The notes beneath the pieces were generated by a model that ran no database searches, was not told the DNA's origin, and was given only the letters and a program-made list of their open reading frames with translations. From positions 6,534-28,095 of the forward strand of contig JBHEMM010000028.1 of the NCBI GenBank assembly GCA_046262595.1: a DNA stretch of 21,562 bases. The letters are read 5' to 3'. This DNA comes from Vulcanimicrobiaceae bacterium (GTDB lineage Bacteria > Vulcanimicrobiota > Vulcanimicrobiia > Vulcanimicrobiales > Vulcanimicrobiaceae). A program made the translations under genes and the position numbers. Below, one piece after another: positions 2,929 to 16,620 of the stretch (positions within the stretch are counted from its first letter, which is position 1; each line of letters starts with the position of its first letter).

Positions 2929-4079
2929 GCTTCGATCCAGGACCGGTAGTAGGACGCGTCTTCGCATTGCGCTGCCTGACGCGCAATGCGCAGCGGTTGA
3001 AATGTGTCGACCATGACTGCGATCTCGTCGGTTGACGTCTTGCCTAAGCTGGCCTCGACCGCTCCGGGCTGCGGGCCGTGCGGCGCGCCCGCCGCATGCA
3101 GCGTGATCGAGCCTTCTTCGACGCCGCGCCGGCTCATGAAATTGCCGCTGACGTAGTACAGCACTTCATCGCAGTCCACGCTCGAATGGTTGTACGGCAC
3201 CGGAATCGCGAGCGGATGATAATCGAACATGCGCGGCACGAACGCGCAAAAGGCCGCGCCGGGCGCCTCGAACGTCGCGTGCGCGGGCGGCGGCTGATGC
3301 AGCTTGCCCGTGATCGGCATGAATTCTTCCAGATTGAACGCATACGGATAGCAGTAACCGTCCCAACCGACCACGTCGCACGGATGGTTCTGCACGACGT
3401 ACGTCGCGCTGCGTCCGTTGTTCGTGACGCGTATCTCGAACTCGCCTTGCTCGCCGCGCGGTGAGCGCAGCACCGGAGCGCGGAAATCGCGCTCGTAGTA
3501 CGGCGACGCTTCTTCGAGTTGCCCGAATTCGTTGCGGTATTTACGCGGTATGCGCACCATGCCCGTTGACTCGTGAACCAGCGCGCGCGTCGGTGCGGAC
3601 GGCACGATGCGGTACGCCGTGCCGGCCGGAATTACGAGATAATCGTGTGCCCGGTATGCCAACTCGCCGAAAGGCGTTTCAAGCGCGCCGGCGCCGTAGT
3701 GCACGAACAGCAGCTCGTCGCCGCCGGCGTTGCGGTAAAACGACCGCATGGGCTCGCTGGCGTCCGCGATCGAAATGAGCAGGTCGGCGTTGCCCATCAA
3801 CGGCGTGCGAGAGTCGATGAAATCGCCCTGCAGCTCGAGCGGTCCAGTCTTGAAATGCCGGTTGCGCAGCGGTTCGTTCGCTTCGAGCTCGACGGCGGCG
3901 CGCTTCCACGGCTTGACGTCCAGCGTCGCGGTTGGCGGATGCAGATGATAGAGCAGCGCGTACACGCTCTCGAAGCCCTTGGTGGAAAAGAGTTCTTCGG
4001 CGTAAAGGCCGCCGTCGGGACGCCGGAATTGAATGTGGCGTTTAGCGGGCAGTTCTCCCGCGCGGACGTAGAACGGCAT
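2925..4079 (-). CDS. hmgA: Homogentisate 1,2-dioxygenase (short bacterial type)
   Basis: FYRNAGGDELLFVH, HPCDVVGWDG, HQPPPAHATF, VPYNHSSVDCDEVLYYVSGNFMSR, TLH..G.PHGPQPG, AVMVDTF. Confidence 0.96.
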   Translation of the reverse strand: MPFYVRAGELPAKRHIQFRRPDGGLYAEELFSTKGFESVYALLYHLHPPTATLDVKPWKRAAVELEANEPLRNRHFKTGPLELQGDFIDSRTPLMGNADLLISIADASEPMRSFYRNAGGDELLFVHYGAGALETPFGELAYRAHDYLVIPAGTAYRIVPSAPTRALVHESTGMVRIPRKYRNEFGQLEEASPYYERDFRAPVLRSPRGEQGEFEIRVTNNGRSATYVVQNHPCDVVGWDGYCYPYAFNLEEFMPITGKLHQPPPAHATFEAPGAAFCAFVPRMFDYHPLAIPVPYNHSSVDCDEVLYYVSGNFMSRRGVEEGSITLHAAGAPHGPQPGAVEASLGKTSTDEIAVMVDTFQPLRIARQAAQCEDASYYRSWIEA

Positions 4080-4388: not shown

Positions 4389-4504
4389 CCATGACGGGGG
4401 CTGGGCTGCTCGCGGCGTGACCTCGTGAACCCCGCCAGATCCGGAAGGAAGCAACGGTAAGCGAGCACTCACGGGTGCCGGGCACCACCTGGCCCTCGCC
4501 GTGG
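4389..4504 (+). ncRNA. ffs: Signal recognition particle RNA, small (4.5S) type
   Basis: Helix-8 signature CCGCCAGATCCGGAAGGAAGCAACGG with GGAA tetraloop. Long closing stem (CCATGACGGGGGCTGGG / CCTGGCCCTCGCCGTGG) followed by a T-run. Confidence 0.92.
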
Positions 4505-9278: not shown

Positions 9279-11192
9279 TTGCATTTACCCCGCGGCTCGG
9301 CGCTTTACGCAGCGTCGGCACTACTTTTTTTGACACAGGGATGCAGCGGCGCCGGAGCGCCCGTTCCCATGACAGCGCAACCGGACACCATTTCGCGAGG
9401 CGCAACGACGACGATGAGTACGACGGTCGCGCAAAGTACCGGCGTGACGACCGCCCTCTCGACGAAAAGAATCGCCGGTCCGATCGTTGCTTTAGGCAGC
9501 AACGGATCGTTTCAAATGAAAGGCCCCACCGGTGTGGGATACACGTGGATCTATCCCACGTCGACGACGGCAAAATTTTATCAGGGCCTTCAGCCCGCGC
9601 TCAATGAATACGCGCAGATTACGGCCACCGGCACGGCGTATACGCCGATCGTGATCGGTTTGTACAAGTCCGCGCCGGCGACGCCCACGTTTACCGGCAG
9701 AATCACGAGCCAACAGGCGTACGGCATTGCCGTTCAAGACAAGGTAACCGGCATTTACGTGCCCGTGGCTCTGTCGACGAGCAGTTCCGTGACCGTCGCT
9801 CTGACGGTGGGCGCGACGGTCACCATTTCCGGCCCCGGTGCCGTTGCGGCGAGCACGGCGCTTTTTGCCAATACGATCGCTTCGACGTCGACAGCGAGCG
9901 TAACGCCGACGCCGTCCACCACACCGGCGCCTACCGCCACGGCGACTGCTTCCGCGACGGCCACACCGTCGTCCACATATCCGACCACCGCGTTTATGCC
10001 CAGTTCGCGCGGGAAGATCAGCGCCTTTCAAATCTTCGATGAAACCGGAAACGGCACGATCACCAGCACGGCCGCATCTAACGACGGCTGGCGTTATGCA
10101 TCCGTGTGGGGAGTGCGGCCCGGCCTCGGCTCAACGTGGCGCAACAGCAACACGGCGCTCAGAAGCGCTTACTACATGCTCATGGACACCGATCAAAGCA
10201 CGACGGCATGGGGCGCGATCGGTCACTCGTTAACCTGGTGGCAGGCGAACCACCCGACGTGGGTGCTCTACGAATGCACGTCAACCGGAACGCCGACGAC
10301 GACGCCGGCGTACGATTCCGGCTTGCCGAACGTGCCGCTCAACATACGGAACTCATCGGTCGTGAATTACCAGATCGCGCAGCAAGCCGTGCCGTACGCG
10401 ATTAAAGAAGGCTATAACACGCTTGCGGTTGACGAAGTCACGTTCTGGTTCCCGGGCGGCGGCCACGGCTATTACCCGTGCGGAACGTGGAGCAACGGCA
10501 CGTTCACGCGTTTGTACAGCGGACCAAACGACACCGCGTGGGCGAGCGATGTCGTGAACTGGGTGAAGGCGGCGCACGCGATTACGAAGGCAAACAACAT
10601 GCTGCTCTTGGTTAATCATCCCGGCGGCAACATCACGACGAACGAAGCGTCGCTGCTGGCGAACGTCGATGCCGACATGGACGAAACCGGTTTTACCGAT
10701 TACGGCAAGTACCTCATGCCGTCCGTTGCCCCTGTCACGCGAGAAGCGAACTGGATGAAGTACGCCCAAGCGCATGGGACGGCTGTCTTGATCAATCAGG
10801 ACTGGGGTTCCATCACGTCCATGGGCGCATCCCAAAAAGATTACTCGATCGCGACGTATCTTTTAGGGAACGAGCAGGCCGCCTCGCTCTTCGCTTCGAC
10901 GCACACGGGTTACGGCGTCGAAAACTACTATCCGGAGTATGGCACGGCGATCGGCTCGCCGTGCGGTGAGTATTACGGCGGATCGTCTTACAGCTCGACG
11001 CATCCGGCCTTGTACTACCGCAAGTTCGCCAACGCGTTTGTCGTCGTAAACGCGGGCGGGAGCGGCACGGAAGCGGCGACGTTGCCTTCGGGTCATACGT
11101 ACTCGGATATCGAGGGACGCTCCGTCACCTCCTCGCTTTCCGTTGCGGCGAACGACGGCTACGTTCTCAAGACGACGAACGGCTGCCAATAA
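9279..11192 (+). CDS. Lipoprotein with N-terminal beta-rich repeats, Thr/Pro linker and putative glycoside hydrolase (GHL15-like) domain
   Basis: Signal peptide with lipobox-like TQG-C; GGAGG RBS before the TTG start; TP-rich linker; aromatic-rich domain with acidic motifs LAVDE and DMDETGF; C-terminal LYYRKFANAFVVVN. Confidence 0.7.
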   Translation: MHLPRGSALYAASALLFLTQGCSGAGAPVPMTAQPDTISRGATTTMSTTVAQSTGVTTALSTKRIAGPIVALGSNGSFQMKGPTGVGYTWIYPTSTTAKFYQGLQPALNEYAQITATGTAYTPIVIGLYKSAPATPTFTGRITSQQAYGIAVQDKVTGIYVPVALSTSSSVTVALTVGATVTISGPGAVAASTALFANTIASTSTASVTPTPSTTPAPTATATASATATPSSTYPTTAFMPSSRGKISAFQIFDETGNGTITSTAASNDGWRYASVWGVRPGLGSTWRNSNTALRSAYYMLMDTDQSTTAWGAIGHSLTWWQANHPTWVLYECTSTGTPTTTPAYDSGLPNVPLNIRNSSVVNYQIAQQAVPYAIKEGYNTLAVDEVTFWFPGGGHGYYPCGTWSNGTFTRLYSGPNDTAWASDVVNWVKAAHAITKANNMLLLVNHPGGNITTNEASLLANVDADMDETGFTDYGKYLMPSVAPVTREANWMKYAQAHGTAVLINQDWGSITSMGASQKDYSIATYLLGNEQAASLFASTHTGYGVENYYPEYGTAIGSPCGEYYGGSSYSSTHPALYYRKFANAFVVVNAGGSGTEAATLPSGHTYSDIEGRSVTSSLSVAANDGYVLKTTNGCQ

Positions 11193-11204
11193 GCTAAAGA
11201 AACA

Positions 11205-11234
11205 GCCGGCCGTCCGCAGGGTGGGACGGCCGGC
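11205..11234 (+). terminator. 11-bp GC hairpin after the lipoprotein gene (terminator or processing stem)
   Basis: GCCGGCCGTCC-gcagggtg-GGACGGCCGGC; no U-tract on the + strand. Confidence 0.55.
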
Positions 11235-11238
11235 AAGG

Positions 11239-11252
11239 CGAACGTATGTTCG
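11239..11252. promoter_or_regulatory. LexA/SOS box (Gram-positive Cheo type)
   Basis: CGAAC-GTAT-GTTCG matches CGAAC-RNRY-GTTCG exactly, 1 nt before ATG 11254. Confidence 0.8.
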
Positions 11253-11253
11253 C

Positions 11254-11694
11254 ATGAAAAAGTGCAGTACGTGCGGGTGCGTGTTGCCGCTTGCGGAGTT
11301 TCGGATAAAGTCGCGCGCAAAAAAGACATACCACTCGGCGTGCCGCGCTTGCTTCGTCATCTACAGCCGCGCGCATTACCGCGAAAACAGCGAGATCTAT
11401 AAACGGCATCGCGCTCGCAATGCACCGCGTTACCGCGAAAACAACCGCCGGCGCGTTCTGGACTACTTGGCCGCCTCACCTTGCGTGGACTGCGGCGAAA
11501 ACGACCCAATCGTATTGGAGTTTGATCACGTGCGCGGCGAAAAGATGGCGAACGTGAGTGAAATGGTCGGCCAATGCTACTCTTGGCGCCGTATAGTTGA
11601 AGAGATACAAAAGTGCGTCGTGCGGTGCGCCAATTGCCACCGGAGGAAAACTGCTGGTCAGTTTAAATGGTTCAGGGGCAGATCCGGGACGTAG
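11254..11694 (+). CDS. Zn-finger HNH endonuclease-like protein (146 aa)
   Basis: N-terminal CxxC...CxxC (CSTC, CRAC); C-terminal CVDCG..DP..LEFDHV...KC..RCANCHRRKT beta-beta-alpha-metal motif. Confidence 0.85.
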   Translation: MKKCSTCGCVLPLAEFRIKSRAKKTYHSACRACFVIYSRAHYRENSEIYKRHRARNAPRYRENNRRRVLDYLAASPCVDCGENDPIVLEFDHVRGEKMANVSEMVGQCYSWRRIVEEIQKCVVRCANCHRRKTAGQFKWFRGRSGT

Positions 11695-11758
11695 CTCAGC
11701 TTGGTAGAGCGCTAGCTTTGGGAGTTAGAAGTCGCTGGTTCGAGTCCAGTCGTCCCGA
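11685..11758 (+). tRNA. tRNA-Pro (TGG), CCA not encoded
   Basis: Acceptor CGGGACG/CGTCCCG; anticodon arm CTAGC-TT-TGG-GA-GTTAG; T-loop TTCGAGT. Confidence 0.97.
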
Positions 11759-11788
11759 TGTTATTTTTGAGGCTCTCTTGCGCCGTCG

Positions 11789-11797
11789 TGGTATCTT
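11789..11797 (+). promoter_or_regulatory. Extended -10 element upstream of tRNA-Arg/His
   Basis: TGgTATCTT. Confidence 0.45.
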
Positions 11798-11842
11798 AAC
11801 GTAGGCAGCGCGCGATGCCCGGATCGCTGCCTGTCGGGTAGT

Positions 11843-11915
<73 letters not shown>

Positions 11916-11923
11916 GACTGTGT

Positions 11924-12002
11924 GGTGGTTGTAGCTCAGTTGGTTAGAGCGCTCGACTGTGACTCGAGAGGTTCGCGGGTTCAAATCCCGTCAGCCACCC
12001 CA
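11924..12002 (+). tRNA. tRNA-His (GTG), with G-1, C73 and encoded CCA
   Basis: G-GTGGTTG/CAGCCAC-C-CCA; anticodon arm CTCGA-CT-GTG-AC-TCGAG. Confidence 0.96.
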
Positions 12003-12120
12003 AACGACAAAAGCGGCGCCGCGATTTAAGACGGCGCTGCTTTCGTTACGCAAGTTTGACCGATTGCATGCCCGGCTGGGCAGAAGAGTGCCGCCCTGCG
12101 GCGCGAACGTCCGCCTAGCA

Positions 12121-14916
12121 ATGGACGCCCGCCGCATGTCTCCCTCGCGCGCATCGCTCGGCGTGCTGGTGACCGCTTTATCAGCGGTCTTTTTGGCATT
12201 TGCGCTCTTGCAGGCGTTCTCTCTCAACGGGCAGGCGGAGCTCCCTGCGCCCGCCCTGATGCGCGAGCGGACCGCCGTGAAGTACGAACGTCTGCTGTAT
12301 CCGGTCATCGTCGATCTCGGGCGGTACCGCGTCAACCGCGAAATGCTTGGCCATCGGCCGTTCGCCCCCGATGCGCGCGCGTCGGTCGATCGGGCTATGC
12401 TCGCCGCGACGGCTTTCACCCGCGCTTACGACGCTGACGTGCAAACGAGCGGGCCGTGGAACGCGGTGCGCAAGGATTGGCAGGCCGCGCGCAGCGTCAA
12501 TGCGCCTTACCGCGGGAACGCGATTGACAACACCATGAGCGATCTCGTCGGAGTGGTTTATCGCGTCGAGGATACAACCGGTCTCGCGTACGAGCCGGAC
12601 AAGTACGCCCAGGACCTCGCCGACATCGCTTTCGCGAAAATTCCTTCTGCCGCCGACGTCATGCTGCATACGCGCCTTCTGGTCGAGAACGCCCTTACGC
12701 GCCACACGATCGACATTGCCGACCGCATACGCTTAGCACGGCACGCCGGCGCTTTGGGCGTCGCAGGCACGGACAGCGATTTCAGCACGGACGACTGGGC
12801 GGCGATCCTTCAGCGGCTGCCAGACCTTCACATGGGCTCTGTCGCGGACGCGGAAGCGTACGGTGCGCACGCTGGCCGGTTTGCGTCGGCCGCGCTCGCG
12901 CTTGCACGGTACAGCAACGCGCACGTCGTCATGCTGCAGACCCCGAGCGGGGATCCGGCGCAAGCGCGGCGCCTCGCCGACGCGATGGTCGGCGTCACCG
13001 CGGCGGTAAACACGGATGTTGCCGCAATGCTCGATCGGTCGCTTTACACGCGCATCGGCTTTGCTCAAAAACGCGAACGGTACGTCTACGCCGTGGTGCT
13101 GCTTTCCGCTGCGTTACTCATCGGCATCATGCTGCTCGTCGCCGAATTCACCGCGCGCCGAGACCGCGATCTGCTGCAGAAAGCCAAGCAAGAATCGGAA
13201 CATTTGGCCGCCGAGTTGGCGCGGCAGAACGCCGAGCGCGCGCTCCGGCTTTCCGAAGCGCAGTTCCGGGCGGTGTTTCACGGCGCGGCGCTTGGGATCG
13301 CGGTGCTCGATCGCAGCGGCGCGGTGTTGGACGCGAATGCGGTCTTCAGAAACGTCTACGGCGAGAACGCCTCGGGCATCCTGGAGGATCGTGACGGCGA
13401 GTTTGCCGAGTTGATGCGCGGCGAGCGCGACCTCTTCGAGTTCGAGCAGCATGTAATGACGCCGTCCGGACAGGAAGCGTGGACGAATTCCACCGTTTCG
13501 TTGGTCAATGACGAAACGGGCAATCCGTATTTTGCCATCTGCATGTTCCGTGATCTCACCGACCTCAAGCGGAACGAGCGGCGCATGCTGCACGATATGA
13601 CGCACGACGGGCTGACCGGCCTGCCGAACCGCGCGCTGTTTGAAGCGAAAGTGCGGGAACAGTTTCTGGAGGCTAAAGCACGTCCGCAATCCTCGTTCGC
13701 CGTCCTATTTGTCGATTTGGACCGCTTCAAGGACATCAACGAATCGCTCGGTCACGATGCCGGCGATTTCGTCATCTCGCAAGTCGGACACCGGCTGCGC
13801 GCCGCAATCGAATCGGCGGATGTCGTGGCGCGCCTGGGCAGCGACGAGTTTGCCGTGCTTGTACGTTCCCTGCCCGATGTGCTGCATGTGGAAGTCATTG
13901 CGAGACGTTTGCTCACGGCGCTGGCCAAACCGGTGGCACTGGGAAGCCGGTCGATCTTTATCTGCGCGAGCGTCGGCATCGCGCTATGCGGAACCGGCTA
14001 TCAGCGCGGCGAGGACGTCATGCGCGACGCGGACATCGCCATGCGTTACGCCAAGAGCGGCGGCGGAGGACGGTTCGCTGTGTTCGATTCGAAGATGCAC
14101 GCTCGAGCCGAAAAGCGGCTGCAACTCACGACGGAGCTGCGCCTGGCGCTCGAGCAGCGCGAGTTCAAGCTGCTTTACCAGCCCATCGTCCGCATCGCGG
14201 ATGGCGAGCTGACCGGATGCGAAGCGCTGCTGCGGTGGAATCATCCCGCCGAGGGTGTGATGCTGCCGATGGATTTCATGCCGCTCGCGGAGCAGACGGC
14301 GCTGGCCGTGCCTATCGGCCGTTTCGTCTTGCGCACGGCCTGTGAACAACTCTCGCACTGGAAACGTGCCGCGGGCAACAACGCGCTTTTTCCGGTCAAC
14401 GTCAACGTTTCGGCCGCGGAATTGTTGCACCCAGAGTTTGAAACGGTATTGGACGCAGCGATCCGCGAGTTCGGCGTTTCACCTTCGGATTTGACGCTCG
14501 AGATTACCGAGAGCGTCGTGCTCGATGCGGGCACGCGACCGAACGCACTCATCGAGCGCCTTCGCGGCAAGGGATTCAGTGTCTGCATCGATGATTTCGG
14601 CACCGGCTACTCTTCACTGCGCTATCTGCAGCAGTTCAAAGTGGATGCGATAAAAATCGATCGCTCGTTCGTCGCGGGACAGGACGGCGACATCGCGAGC
14701 GAACCCATCGTGCGCACGCTGATGACGCTGGCCGAAGCCTTCGATGTGCGCGTCGTTGCGGAAGGAATCGAAACGCCCAGGCAGCGCGACGTGCTCCGGA
14801 ATGCAGCGTGCCGGTTCGGGCAAGGATATCTTTATTCGAAGGCGCTTACGGCCGCGCAGCTCGCCGCGATGTATCCGGCGGCGTTCGGTTTGGAACCGCG
14901 TCACGCGCCCGCATAG
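12121..14916 (+). CDS. Membrane-anchored PAS-GGDEF-EAL c-di-GMP signalling protein
   Basis: Two TM segments flank an extracytoplasmic domain; PAS/PAC; HDGLTGLPNR, DLDRFKDINESLGH, RLGSDEF; EALLRW, LEITE, DDFGTGYSSL, KIDRSF, VAEGIE, QGY. Start is ATG 12121 or 12136. Confidence 0.95.
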   Translation: MDARRMSPSRASLGVLVTALSAVFLAFALLQAFSLNGQAELPAPALMRERTAVKYERLLYPVIVDLGRYRVNREMLGHRPFAPDARASVDRAMLAATAFTRAYDADVQTSGPWNAVRKDWQAARSVNAPYRGNAIDNTMSDLVGVVYRVEDTTGLAYEPDKYAQDLADIAFAKIPSAADVMLHTRLLVENALTRHTIDIADRIRLARHAGALGVAGTDSDFSTDDWAAILQRLPDLHMGSVADAEAYGAHAGRFASAALALARYSNAHVVMLQTPSGDPAQARRLADAMVGVTAAVNTDVAAMLDRSLYTRIGFAQKRERYVYAVVLLSAALLIGIMLLVAEFTARRDRDLLQKAKQESEHLAAELARQNAERALRLSEAQFRAVFHGAALGIAVLDRSGAVLDANAVFRNVYGENASGILEDRDGEFAELMRGERDLFEFEQHVMTPSGQEAWTNSTVSLVNDETGNPYFAICMFRDLTDLKRNERRMLHDMTHDGLTGLPNRALFEAKVREQFLEAKARPQSSFAVLFVDLDRFKDINESLGHDAGDFVISQVGHRLRAAIESADVVARLGSDEFAVLVRSLPDVLHVEVIARRLLTALAKPVALGSRSIFICASVGIALCGTGYQRGEDVMRDADIAMRYAKSGGGGRFAVFDSKMHARAEKRLQLTTELRLALEQREFKLLYQPIVRIADGELTGCEALLRWNHPAEGVMLPMDFMPLAEQTALAVPIGRFVLRTACEQLSHWKRAAGNNALFPVNVNVSAAELLHPEFETVLDAAIREFGVSPSDLTLEITESVVLDAGTRPNALIERLRGKGFSVCIDDFGTGYSSLRYLQQFKVDAIKIDRSFVAGQDGDIASEPIVRTLMTLAEAFDVRVVAEGIETPRQRDVLRNAACRFGQGYLYSKALTAAQLAAMYPAAFGLEPRHAPA

Positions 14917-15048: not shown

Positions 15049-15123
<75 letters not shown>

Positions 15124-15126
15124 AAT

Positions 15127-15336
15127 TTATGCCGGCTCGAGCATTCGTTGCAGGGCGGCCAAACGATGGAGTTCGTGACGGTAGAAGTTGAGCGCGTCCG
15201 CCGGAACCGGCTCGTGCGTTTCCGACGCGATCGCGCGAAAAAGCGCCGCGTCCACATAAGCGGCTGAAAGTGACCCGTCCGCAACGTTCGTTGAGAGCGC
15301 TTTTATACGCTCCCATATTCGTTCACCGTTCGTCAT
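15127..15336 (-). CDS. Small hypothetical protein (69 aa, helical)
   Basis: ATG preceded by purine-rich GGAGAGAAGGG; natural-looking composition; stop lies 3 nt from the tRNA-Lys 3' end. Confidence 0.6.
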   Translation of the reverse strand: MTNGERIWERIKALSTNVADGSLSAAYVDAALFRAIASETHEPVPADALNFYRHELHRLAALQRMLEPA

Positions 15337-15617
15337 GTCGCCCTTCTCTCCGCAAAGGGGGACGGCGGCTGCACCCGCCGACCCCTTCGTGCTGCAGAGG
15401 CACGAGATATGGCGTTTCTCGTTGCTCGAACGTACCGTACCGTACGGGCGGTTGCAACCCCTAGATTTGGGGGGAACAACGGACTAAACGCAATTTTTGC
15501 CATATCGTAGTTATAAACTTGATTGACATTCCGAGGGCGGGCGGTGCTGCTCTTGAACGTCAAGCGTAGTGACCCGTAGGCGCTGTCTCTGCGGCGCGCG
15601 CGCAGCGCGACCGCGAG

Positions 15618-16620
15618 GTGGTCCAGCGCACGGCGGAGCTCTTAACGAGCAATCTTCCGCTCGAGGAGCTTTTCCATGCGATCGTTCTCTTTTGGCGCGC
15701 TTCGTCGATGCGCGATGGTCTTTATTGCGCTCAAAGAACAGGAGAGCGCGCAAATCGCCTTCATGCTGGAAAACGGCGTCGTCGGCACGCTGGAGAACCG
15801 GCGCGCGCATCCGCATCCCGAACGATGCACGTGCGCATGCGTTCGGCTATCGCAAGCGAGACCAGAAACGGCCGCGCGCGGCTTCGAGCAGCGATTCGGA
15901 AGCAACACCGCGCACCGGTGCTCGGGCGCTTGACCATCAGCGCGGGTGTGGCGGCGAAAGCAGCGAGCCGCTGTGCGCGACGGCGGATGCCGCGCTTTAT
16001 CTGGCCAAACGTTCCGGGCGCAACCGGGTCGCCGACGAGAACTACCGCTCCGACGCGCCGCCCGCGTATGCAGCAAAACATATCGTCAAAACTTGCAGCA
16101 GGTCGGCAGCAGCGTTGTCGTCGGGCGTTCGGAGCATCTGCGTCAGCTGCGCAAGCTGCTGCGCAGTCGTATCTTATCAACAAACTCGCCGCGGCGGTGA
16201 GCGCGTCGGGTGCCGCGCCGATCGCCTCGAAGCCGGCAGCAGTGTACTTCCTGCATGCAAAGCGCGTGCTAATCGTCCTGGACAACTGCGATCTCGTGAG
16301 CGCGCACGTGGCGAAAACGGCTCTCGCCATTTTGGAGCACGCGCGCAACGTGCGGCTGATGGTGACGTCGCGCACGCCGCTCATGGTCGGCGAAGTCGCG
16401 TTTACGCTGCCGCCGCTCGCGTTGGACGACTCGGTGGCACTGTTTACCGATTGCGCGAAGAACGCGGCGCGCGCGAGTTCTATCGACCGGCAAACCGCCG
16501 AGCGCATCTGCCGGCAACGCGACGGCTCGCCACGCGCGATACAGCTTTGCGGCGGCGCAGTTGCGCTTGATCAACGCCGCAACACTTCTTGAGCGCTTGC
16601 CGGAACGCGCGCATCTTCAG
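15618..16620 (+). pseudogene. Decayed GAF - GGDEF - STAND (NB-ARC-like) ATPase fusion gene
   Basis: Fragments in alternating frames: AELLTSNLPLEELF; LTISAGVA; ADAALYLAKRSGRNRV; NL...VGRSEHLRQLRKLL; LIVLDNC..VTSRTPL..LPPL..ICRQRDGSPRAIQL. The GGDEF core and Walker A are missing. Confidence 0.8.

Follow-up and report, generated by a model that had tools for sequence, protein, structure and literature searches.

A predicted HNH homing endonuclease gene set between a LexA-type box and tRNA-Pro in a Vulcanimicrobiaceae chromosome

Introduction

In the genome of a Vulcanimicrobiaceae bacterium (G000), a short nuclease gene begins directly behind a box of LexA type and ends inside a tRNA gene, which raises the question of what a free-standing nuclease does at the head of a tRNA cluster and why a DNA-damage regulator would control it. 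The locus was examined within a 21,562-nucleotide stretch of contig JBHEMM010000028.1 (the window), to which positions refer unless another contig is named. An earlier note on this DNA had proposed a damage-inducible, possibly leaderless cassette, being either a homing element or an SOS-triggered repair or defence nuclease. The features concerned are as follows.

9279..11192, plus strand: gene for a GHL15-like glycoside hydrolase of 637 aa, an insert that separates the GNAT gene from the box here and in G001; a neighbour only
11205..11234, minus strand: 11-bp hairpin with its T-run on the minus strand, in sequence that relatives without the upstream gene do not share, and outside the nuclease cassette
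11238..11253, no strand: predicted LexA-type operator GCGAAC-GTAT-GTTCGC, directly 5' of the ATG; bounds the conserved cassette on its left
11254..11694, plus strand: gene for the 146-aa predicted nuclease (PHROG 2255), with an N-terminal Zn module (residues 1-38), a helical linker and a C-terminal HNH module
11642..11684, plus strand: 3' tail of the nuclease gene, which is also the 5' leader of tRNA-Pro; the sole part left in G001 and G003 of the same genus
11685..11758, plus strand: tRNA-Pro(TGG), carrying the nuclease stop codon and apparently exchanged with the ORF; likely the cognate target gene; variable loop canonical here
11842..11916, plus strand: tRNA-Arg(TCT), invariant among close hosts; internal control
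11925..12002, plus strand: tRNA-His(GTG), hypervariable among relatives, with a 6-nt variable loop; second site of the nuclease family in relatives

The nuclease gene and its surroundings

The ORF contains four CxxC pairs (C4/C7, C30/C33, C77/C80, C125/C128), an FDH motif at residues 90-92 and an RCANCH motif at residues 124-129; these, like the box and the 1-nt gap between its core and the ATG, were found as the earlier note had read them. The protein matches the PHROG 2255 'HNH endonuclease' profile over residues 1-139 (E 3.3e-34), and D91, H92, H129, C77, C80, C125 and C128 are invariant in 51 sequences. By analogy with EndoVII and HNH enzymes, D91/H92 presumably form the dyad, H129 binds metal and the cysteines bind zinc. 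No significant family was found for the protein in Pfam (HNH included), NCBIfam or PADLOC, and there was no sequence match in the PDB. In the structure model (pLDDT 94.5), a long helix connects a small Zn module at the N terminus to the HNH module. Foldseek searches with this model gave no match at E<=0.001, although weak HNH rows were listed; the best match in a VIA fold search was to the N-terminal module of Hpy99I, with a middling score (residues 65-105, Z 5.2, rmsd 1.4, 38 aligned), and a Gme HNH structure scored Z 3.6. In total, 4305 homologues were found, the family is annotated 'HNH endonuclease' in 230 phage records, and the nearest named homologues belong to the Vulcanimicrobiota. The 146-aa protein is likely to be a zinc-module HNH nuclease of the free-standing homing endonuclease type. 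Seven homologues of 220-256 aa (P0002, P0004, P0006, P0020, P0027, P0038 and P0059) carry two tandem HNH modules.

The setting is chromosomal. Pfam, with which seven window proteins were scanned, identified GNAT and GGDEF-EAL neighbours, and further neighbours are genes that we take from their sequences to be lepA, rdgB, tig, clpP and clpX. The window also holds a small SRP RNA at 4399-4497 (Rfam RF00169) and, after the tRNA-Lys pair, a disrupted-looking stretch at 15086-16592 holding fragments that by eye resemble a diguanylate cyclase, and weak ones of NB-ARC. A recent foreign insertion of the nuclease gene was rejected as an explanation because its GC content (0.56; GC3 0.68) is only slightly below that of its neighbours and same-genus genomes retain the gene tail. 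The 11-bp hairpin said to separate the gene from the upstream one is indeed present, but it is no barrier to sense read-through: because its T-run lies on the minus strand, it resembles a terminator of antisense rather than sense transcription. Its candidacy as a sense terminator was accordingly rejected, and there is no terminator on the sense strand before the nuclease gene.

Overlap with tRNA-Pro

The nuclease stop codon (TAG, 11692-11694) coincides with positions 8-10 of tRNA-Pro, so that gene and tRNA share 10 nt. This overlap had been missed earlier, when the gene was correctly placed at the head of a tRNA cluster (tRNA-Pro, -Arg and -His follow); the absence of an intron was confirmed for the locus with Rfam and ARAGORN. 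The same 10-nt overlap with tRNA-Pro is found for gp109 of phage JimJam, a member of the PHROG 2255 family, and a stop at tRNA position 8 recurs in 40 of the 160 best-scoring loci, at tRNA genes for Pro, Arg, Phe, Gly, Thr and Lys (20 of the 160 loci could not be anchored in this survey). Conservation of an adjacent tRNA among homologues, a check proposed at the outset, was borne out: a tRNA lies within 300 nt in 141 of 160 loci, comprising 69/80 genome loci, which are spread over many phyla and are the best 80 of 583, and 72/80 viral loci (the best 80 of 528). Among these 160 best-scoring loci the tRNA is on the same strand as the nuclease in 101/102 downstream and 77/79 upstream cases. A tRNA for the same amino acid stands on either side of the nuclease in 15/35 cases vs 139/549 neighbour pairs, a weak excess. 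Other inserts between the tRNA genes of relatives gave a nuclease Pfam match in 0 of 24 ORFs, and the accessible part of PMC13096335 has nothing on the PHROG 2255 family. In public sequencing runs the best share was 0.10, and four runs cover little beyond the tRNAs. As for tRNA-His, its 6-nt loop is the only clean case among the 33 short-loop-class tRNAs parsed in this genome, and it differs from its relatives at 6-23 positions.

Distribution and evolution across hosts

Thirty-six tRNA-Pro(TGG) loci were compared in relatives, four further regions having been dropped because they hold tRNA-Pro(CGG). The nuclease gene is present in 12 of them (broken in 2), a tail alone is found in 2, and 22 lack the gene; the empty sites for which the earlier note had suggested looking therefore exist. 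Both tail-only loci (G001 and G003) keep the last ~45 nt of the nuclease gene, and the deletion in G001 takes the box and most of the gene. At this junction (L106) the GHL15-like ORF is joined in frame to the nuclease tail and reads into tRNA-Pro. Across the family, a strong nuclease match was found in 52 of 250 genomes.

By its dN/dS of 0.05-0.16 in six of nine pairs (the other three being saturated), the gene is under purifying selection. The trees of the nuclease and of neighbouring rdgB agree at depth, with one promoter change, and since nuclease and host trees agree at this level, long vertical residence dominates the history of the gene. When four host clades, chosen after a quick nuclease tree had been seen, were imposed on the nuclease tree, two were rejected (p-AU 7e-4 and 6e-12) and two were not (0.057 and 0.25). 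Four close hosts were aligned across the locus: their flanks are mostly 75-94% alike, but from the start codon onwards most of the ORF is only 33-67% identical. Their tRNA-Pro genes have 11-17 differences and their tRNA-Arg and tRNA-Lys(TTT) genes none; likewise, tRNA-Pro here differs from same-genus copies at 13-16 positions and tRNA-Arg at 0. The island of divergence, together with the rejected clades, indicates exchange. ORF and tRNA-Pro appear to move as one unit between close hosts, which are related soil bacteria, while each host keeps its own promoter.

Anticodon copies and variable loops

Outside the Vulcanimicrobiota, 25 of 85 non-redundant loci have, in the 130 nt 5' of the gene, an exact copy of the 7-nt anticodon loop belonging to the downstream tRNA (mean 3.7 and maximum 9 in 300 permutations). 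An inverted pair of the loop lies upstream in 20/115 loci elsewhere (permuted mean 2.3, maximum 7), with a spacer of 12-13 nt in 17 of the 20, and in seven loci outside the Vulcanimicrobiota a truncated 5' tRNA half with the anticodon copy is found upstream. Such an anticodon-loop operator was found in 0 of 48 Vulcanimicrobiota loci, this one included. The Vulcanimicrobiota nucleases form one clade (support 92), and rows with the palindrome are scattered elsewhere in the tree, which is unrooted, poorly resolved and limited to 118 rows, about half of the second-motif rows (see below) having been left out by random choice. Nuclease lineages track anticodons, with 39 changes vs 63 when shuffled (85 rows, kin not independent).

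The tRNA-Pro variable loop exceeds 5 nt in 18 of 40 carriers vs 0 of 25. In a wider sample (150 of 213 matches, without one odd match, duplicates and five unpublished genomes), such loops occur in 20/36 carrier genomes vs 8/104 (within-genus permutation p 0.0025). Among non-carriers with long loops, nuclease remains lie upstream in 5 of 8; for normal-loop controls the figure is 4 of 12. Outside the Vulcanimicrobiota, long loops are not enriched beside the gene, in bacteria (3/21 vs 3/37) or in phage (5/45 vs 37/353), and a tree-aware pair test yielded two supported pairs only and had no power. Since the tRNA-Pro variable loop of the present copy is canonical, no resistance change is visible here.

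The box before the start codon

The core repeat CGAAC-GTAT-GTTCG occupies 11239-11252, one further pair extends it to 11238-11253, and the ATG starts at 11254. The consensus of the Gram-positive-type LexA operator is GAAC-N4-GTTC. Upstream of lexA, CGAAC-N4-GTTTG was found in 30/30 loci of the class (27/27 without the unpublished genomes G022, G023 and G036), with which the reading of the box as a LexA-type operator agrees; the further expectation of the same box before lexA and recA held for lexA of the class but not for recA, whose promoters in the class carry it in 0/30 cases. The lexA gene itself was not found in this 89.7%-complete assembly and was found in 39 of 40 relatives. The literature, mostly without subscription papers, gave nothing on Eremiobacterota LexA.

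Within the window there is one perfect match to the box and six at <=1 mismatch vs a shuffle mean of 2.1. CGAAC-N4-GTTCG occurs 14 times genome-wide, which is not above third-order Markov chance (10-20). With a matrix built from lexA promoters, the box ranks as the second best site in the 2.4 Mb genome; the top-ranked site precedes an ImuA-like gene, whose ImuA match lies below the family cut-off. Because the pattern is not enriched genome-wide, the case for the box rests on this rank and on its position against the start codon. In relatives G002, G010, G123, G206 and G187 the box also abuts the nuclease start, DNA similarity to four of these five resumes exactly at 11239, and in G187 the box is kept ahead of an apparently lost nuclease start codon. 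The box is likely, as predicted from these features, to be a LexA operator of the type that precedes lexA in the host class. It is rare in the family as a whole, being found before the nuclease in 8/160 loci (7/80 genome loci, the best 80 of 583, and 1/80 viral, the best 80 of 528); its conservation among homologues, which the earlier note had proposed to test, is not supported, most sisters using a second motif.

No sigma-70 promoter was found in 10900-12200, nor was a Shine-Dalgarno sequence found before the ORF, the lack of which had already been remarked upon. Two possible -10 registers fall inside the box, and as RNA the box would form a 6-bp hairpin touching the AUG. With no sigma-70 promoter found in this interval, the 'leaderless' start suggested earlier is unproven. 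Elsewhere in the genome, a perfect LexA box lies between TTGACT and TACAAT (G000 C8, L027:2022-2457), followed by an apparently leaderless 135-aa ORF that has no Pfam or NCBIfam match and is upstream of a methylpurine glycosylase gene; another LexA-type box is found near the start of a class II ribonucleotide reductase gene with an intein (G000 C49, L030:1912-3999).

A second promoter motif in sister lineages

In most Vulcanimicrobiota homologues, TGC[CA]A-N6-TG[GT]CA-N10-[TG]AnnnT is located ~39-42 nt before the ATG. The strict palindrome is found in 16/32 Vulcanimicrobiota nuclease loci vs 0/128 other loci, and 51 non-redundant Vulcanimicrobiota loci divide into 31 with the second motif (looser pattern), 4 with the LexA box and 16 with neither. 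At sister nuclease loci a complete promoter of activator type stops 5-8 nt short of the ATG, and the motif also precedes this nuclease at tRNA-His, tRNA-Lys and tRNA-Arg(CCG) sites in relatives. The palindrome TGCCA-N6-TGGCA precedes recA in 17/30 genomes (15/27 without the three unpublished ones). In this genome the full motif occurs four times vs 0 in four simulations: before recA, ssb and a TM0106-type nuclease gene, and once inside namZ, probably by chance. The elements on other contigs are listed here.

TGCCA-N6-TG[GT]CA-N10-TAnnnT in G000: C51 ~3951-3983 (recA), C12 58153-58185 (ssb) and C45 13138-13170 (TM0106-type nuclease); L031, L303, L304
C19:30493-31485 in G000: WYL-WCX gene, 331 aa, co-occurring with the second motif

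The motif is found in 28/29 genomes of two families and 0/11 of a third, and the WYL-WCX protein in 27/29 vs 0/11 of the same families, G005 lacking both (the tallies include unpublished G022, G023 and G036, and kin are not independent). The motif is likely to be WYL-activated, by the C19 protein, whose binding we infer. A second WYL gene, on C34, was rejected as the regulator: it occurs in only 17/29 genomes of the motif-bearing order, though the motif is often upstream of it, and C19 fits better. The motif upstream of the C34 gene was seen in several relatives too, and in this genome the motif palindrome, a DEDDh exonuclease gene and the second WYL-WCX gene stand in one run (G000 C34, L306:2418-4208). 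In many lexA promoters (L041-L070) the LexA box is accompanied by the TGCCA-N6-TGGCA palindrome, which lies downstream of the -10.

Two other kinds of nuclease gene follow the motif. An EndoVII-family gene after tRNA-Phe(GAA) has it in its promoter (G000 C102:1-723, L305; the gene contains an N gap). In G017 (L363-L367) there are ~17 near-identical copies, and those read drive an apparently leaderless TnpB (IS200/IS605) ORF; four of the five copies read have a TnpB-like frame, of which one was scanned. Nothing on point concerning TnpB under a DNA-damage or LexA promoter was found in the literature, which was accessible in part and mostly without subscription papers.

Discussion

The locus is probably a free-standing homing endonuclease gene whose product cuts rival tRNA-Pro alleles and is expressed only upon LexA cleavage after DNA damage. 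At the level of sequence, this is supported by the nuclease family, the tRNA overlap, patchiness, decay, purifying selection, the joint divergence of ORF and tRNA-Pro, and the three promoter motifs. Of the two possibilities raised earlier, decay, allele exchange and the target-like signatures favour the homing element, and the repair or defence nuclease gained no support, with 0 PADLOC and 0 NCBIfam families matched.

The protein would read the anticodon arm, probably together with the T-arm at a set distance; the anticodon arm is proposed because inverted cognate loops overlie the promoters of relatives and because variable-loop insertions build up in carriers. Should a susceptible allele, whether incoming or resident, be broken, the carrier would serve as the repair template, and ORF and tRNA would be copied as one. 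In the Vulcanimicrobiota, an ancestral self-repression operator may have been replaced by host damage switches, LexA here and the recA/ssb-type activator site in most sister genera. With the nuclease gated by such switches, cutting would coincide with active recombination. Processing of the tRNA-Pro 5' end at 11685 would sever the mRNA 7 nt upstream of its stop codon and might act as a second brake, as has been proposed for T4 segB.

Taken further, the nuclease and its own tRNA gene may constitute a chromosomal gene drive that recognises an essential single-copy tRNA gene by its anticodon arm, forces variable-loop and stem changes upon this tRNA, borrows its stop codon so that the message becomes non-stop after maturation, and has traded anticodon-mimic self-repression for two damage regulators. 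This fuller account is offered tentatively, as a possibility that we consider somewhat doubtful in its entirety.

It is unlikely that the gene is a domesticated SOS effector, once selfish and now kept by the host for damage-induced repair, abortive infection or cell death, the tRNA position being historical. Strong purifying selection and the broad agreement of gene and host trees would suit such an effector, as would the recruitment of the gene to two damage regulons of the host whose other members include ImuA-like, Lhr-like, ssb, recA and TM0106-type nuclease genes. However, only 52/250 family genomes hold the gene, remnants are many, and alleles have been replaced among close hosts along with tRNA-Pro; moreover, there is no PADLOC or NCBIfam match and no partner gene, and unrelated selfish nucleases stand behind the same promoter motif.

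Another reading, also improbable, assigns the box a silencing role, in which LexA either keeps transcription of the upstream operon from running on or governs the transcript of the three tRNAs (Pro, Arg and His); the nuclease would then be a passenger with hardly any translation, which homed under another promoter. The missing promoter and Shine-Dalgarno sequence, the RNA hairpin at the AUG, the open sense strand before the gene and the box retained in G187 before an apparently lost start codon are consistent with it, but the G001 and G003 deletions lose the box and keep the tRNA, no box was seen by eye in the 130 nt before tRNA-Pro in empty alleles, and sister loci have their complete activator-type promoter 5-8 nt before the ATG. 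That the protein acts on tRNA molecules, as an anticodon nuclease or in tRNA processing, and not on tRNA genes, is very hard to credit: the specificity signal is centred on the anticodon loop and nuclease lineages follow anticodons, yet the anticodon copies are inverted DNA pairs at fixed spacing over promoters, and the nearest folds, as well as the characterised tRNA-cluster nucleases (PMC2330249, accessible part), act on DNA.

The homing reading would explain why the tRNA genes Pro-TGG and His vary far more than their neighbours. Free-standing homing endonucleases have been characterised in phages, and the locus would bear on whether they still home in the chromosomes of bacteria and on how hosts withstand a nuclease directed against a tRNA gene that they cannot do without. 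It offers matched alleles in three states (carrier, remnant and empty), a predicted target region, alleles that are candidates for resistance, and two alternative damage switches. If the gene-drive account is true, the family would amount to a natural collection of 146-aa nucleases whose DNA specificity is programmed by anticodons. Three kinds of selfish nuclease (HNH, EndoVII and TnpB) stand behind damage-type promoters in one lineage.

Comparison with characterised systems

As in bacteria with the Gram-positive-type LexA operator, the motif of the box precedes lexA (30/30 class genomes) and, here, an ImuA-like gene; unlike in those bacteria, recA of the class is without it (0/30), and the site at this locus touches the start codon with no recognisable promoter. 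The second motif may be set beside the sites of PafBC, tGTCgg(N10)tA(N3)T with the same 10-nt spacing to the -10 (PMC8635444), and of DriD (PMC9186387) and DdaA (PMC12392091), which are palindromic and lie before recA. As far as the accessible parts of these papers describe them, the second motif, found before recA and ssb, is palindromic like those of DriD and DdaA and stands 10 nt before the -10 like that of PafBC, whereas TGCCA-N6-TGGCA is unlike all three motifs and the present nuclease copy uses the LexA box instead. In the literature, accessible in part and mostly without subscription papers, nothing on point was found on a homing endonuclease under SOS or LexA control beside a tRNA; nor, mostly without such papers, was anything found on an anticodon loop as operator of a free-standing homing endonuclease.

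The closest parallel for self-repression is I-TevI, in which, according to the accessible part of PMC2988022, an operator resembling the homing site overlaps the gene's own promoter and mediates autorepression. Relatives outside the Vulcanimicrobiota are inferred to be alike in having a target-like operator over their own promoter. I-TevI, however, is an intron-encoded GIY-YIG enzyme with one operator, whereas the relatives have an inverted anticodon-loop pair, which is absent from the present lineage.

HNH genes in tRNA arrays have been described before, namely the F-Tfl enzymes of T5 (named in PMC2330249), those of mycobacterial arrays (PMC5966550, PMC6409571) and all8564 of Anabaena (PMC8421152). 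The accessible parts of these papers report association or suggest homing and give no target, anticodon operator or damage control, and F-Tfl and all8564 are likened to the present gene by neighbourhood, not kinship. SegB of T4 provides the best-described case. According to the accessible part of PMC2330249, this free-standing endonuclease cleaves tRNA genes and propagates together with them, and tRNA maturation has been proposed to sever its mRNA immediately ahead of the stop codon. The position in a tRNA cluster is common to both. SegB is a GIY-YIG enzyme that recognises a T-loop motif, spreads during phage co-infection and has no host damage regulator in that account, whereas the gene described here is of HNH type and chromosomal, has a LexA-type box at its start codon and points, through its relatives, to a signal on the anticodon arm.
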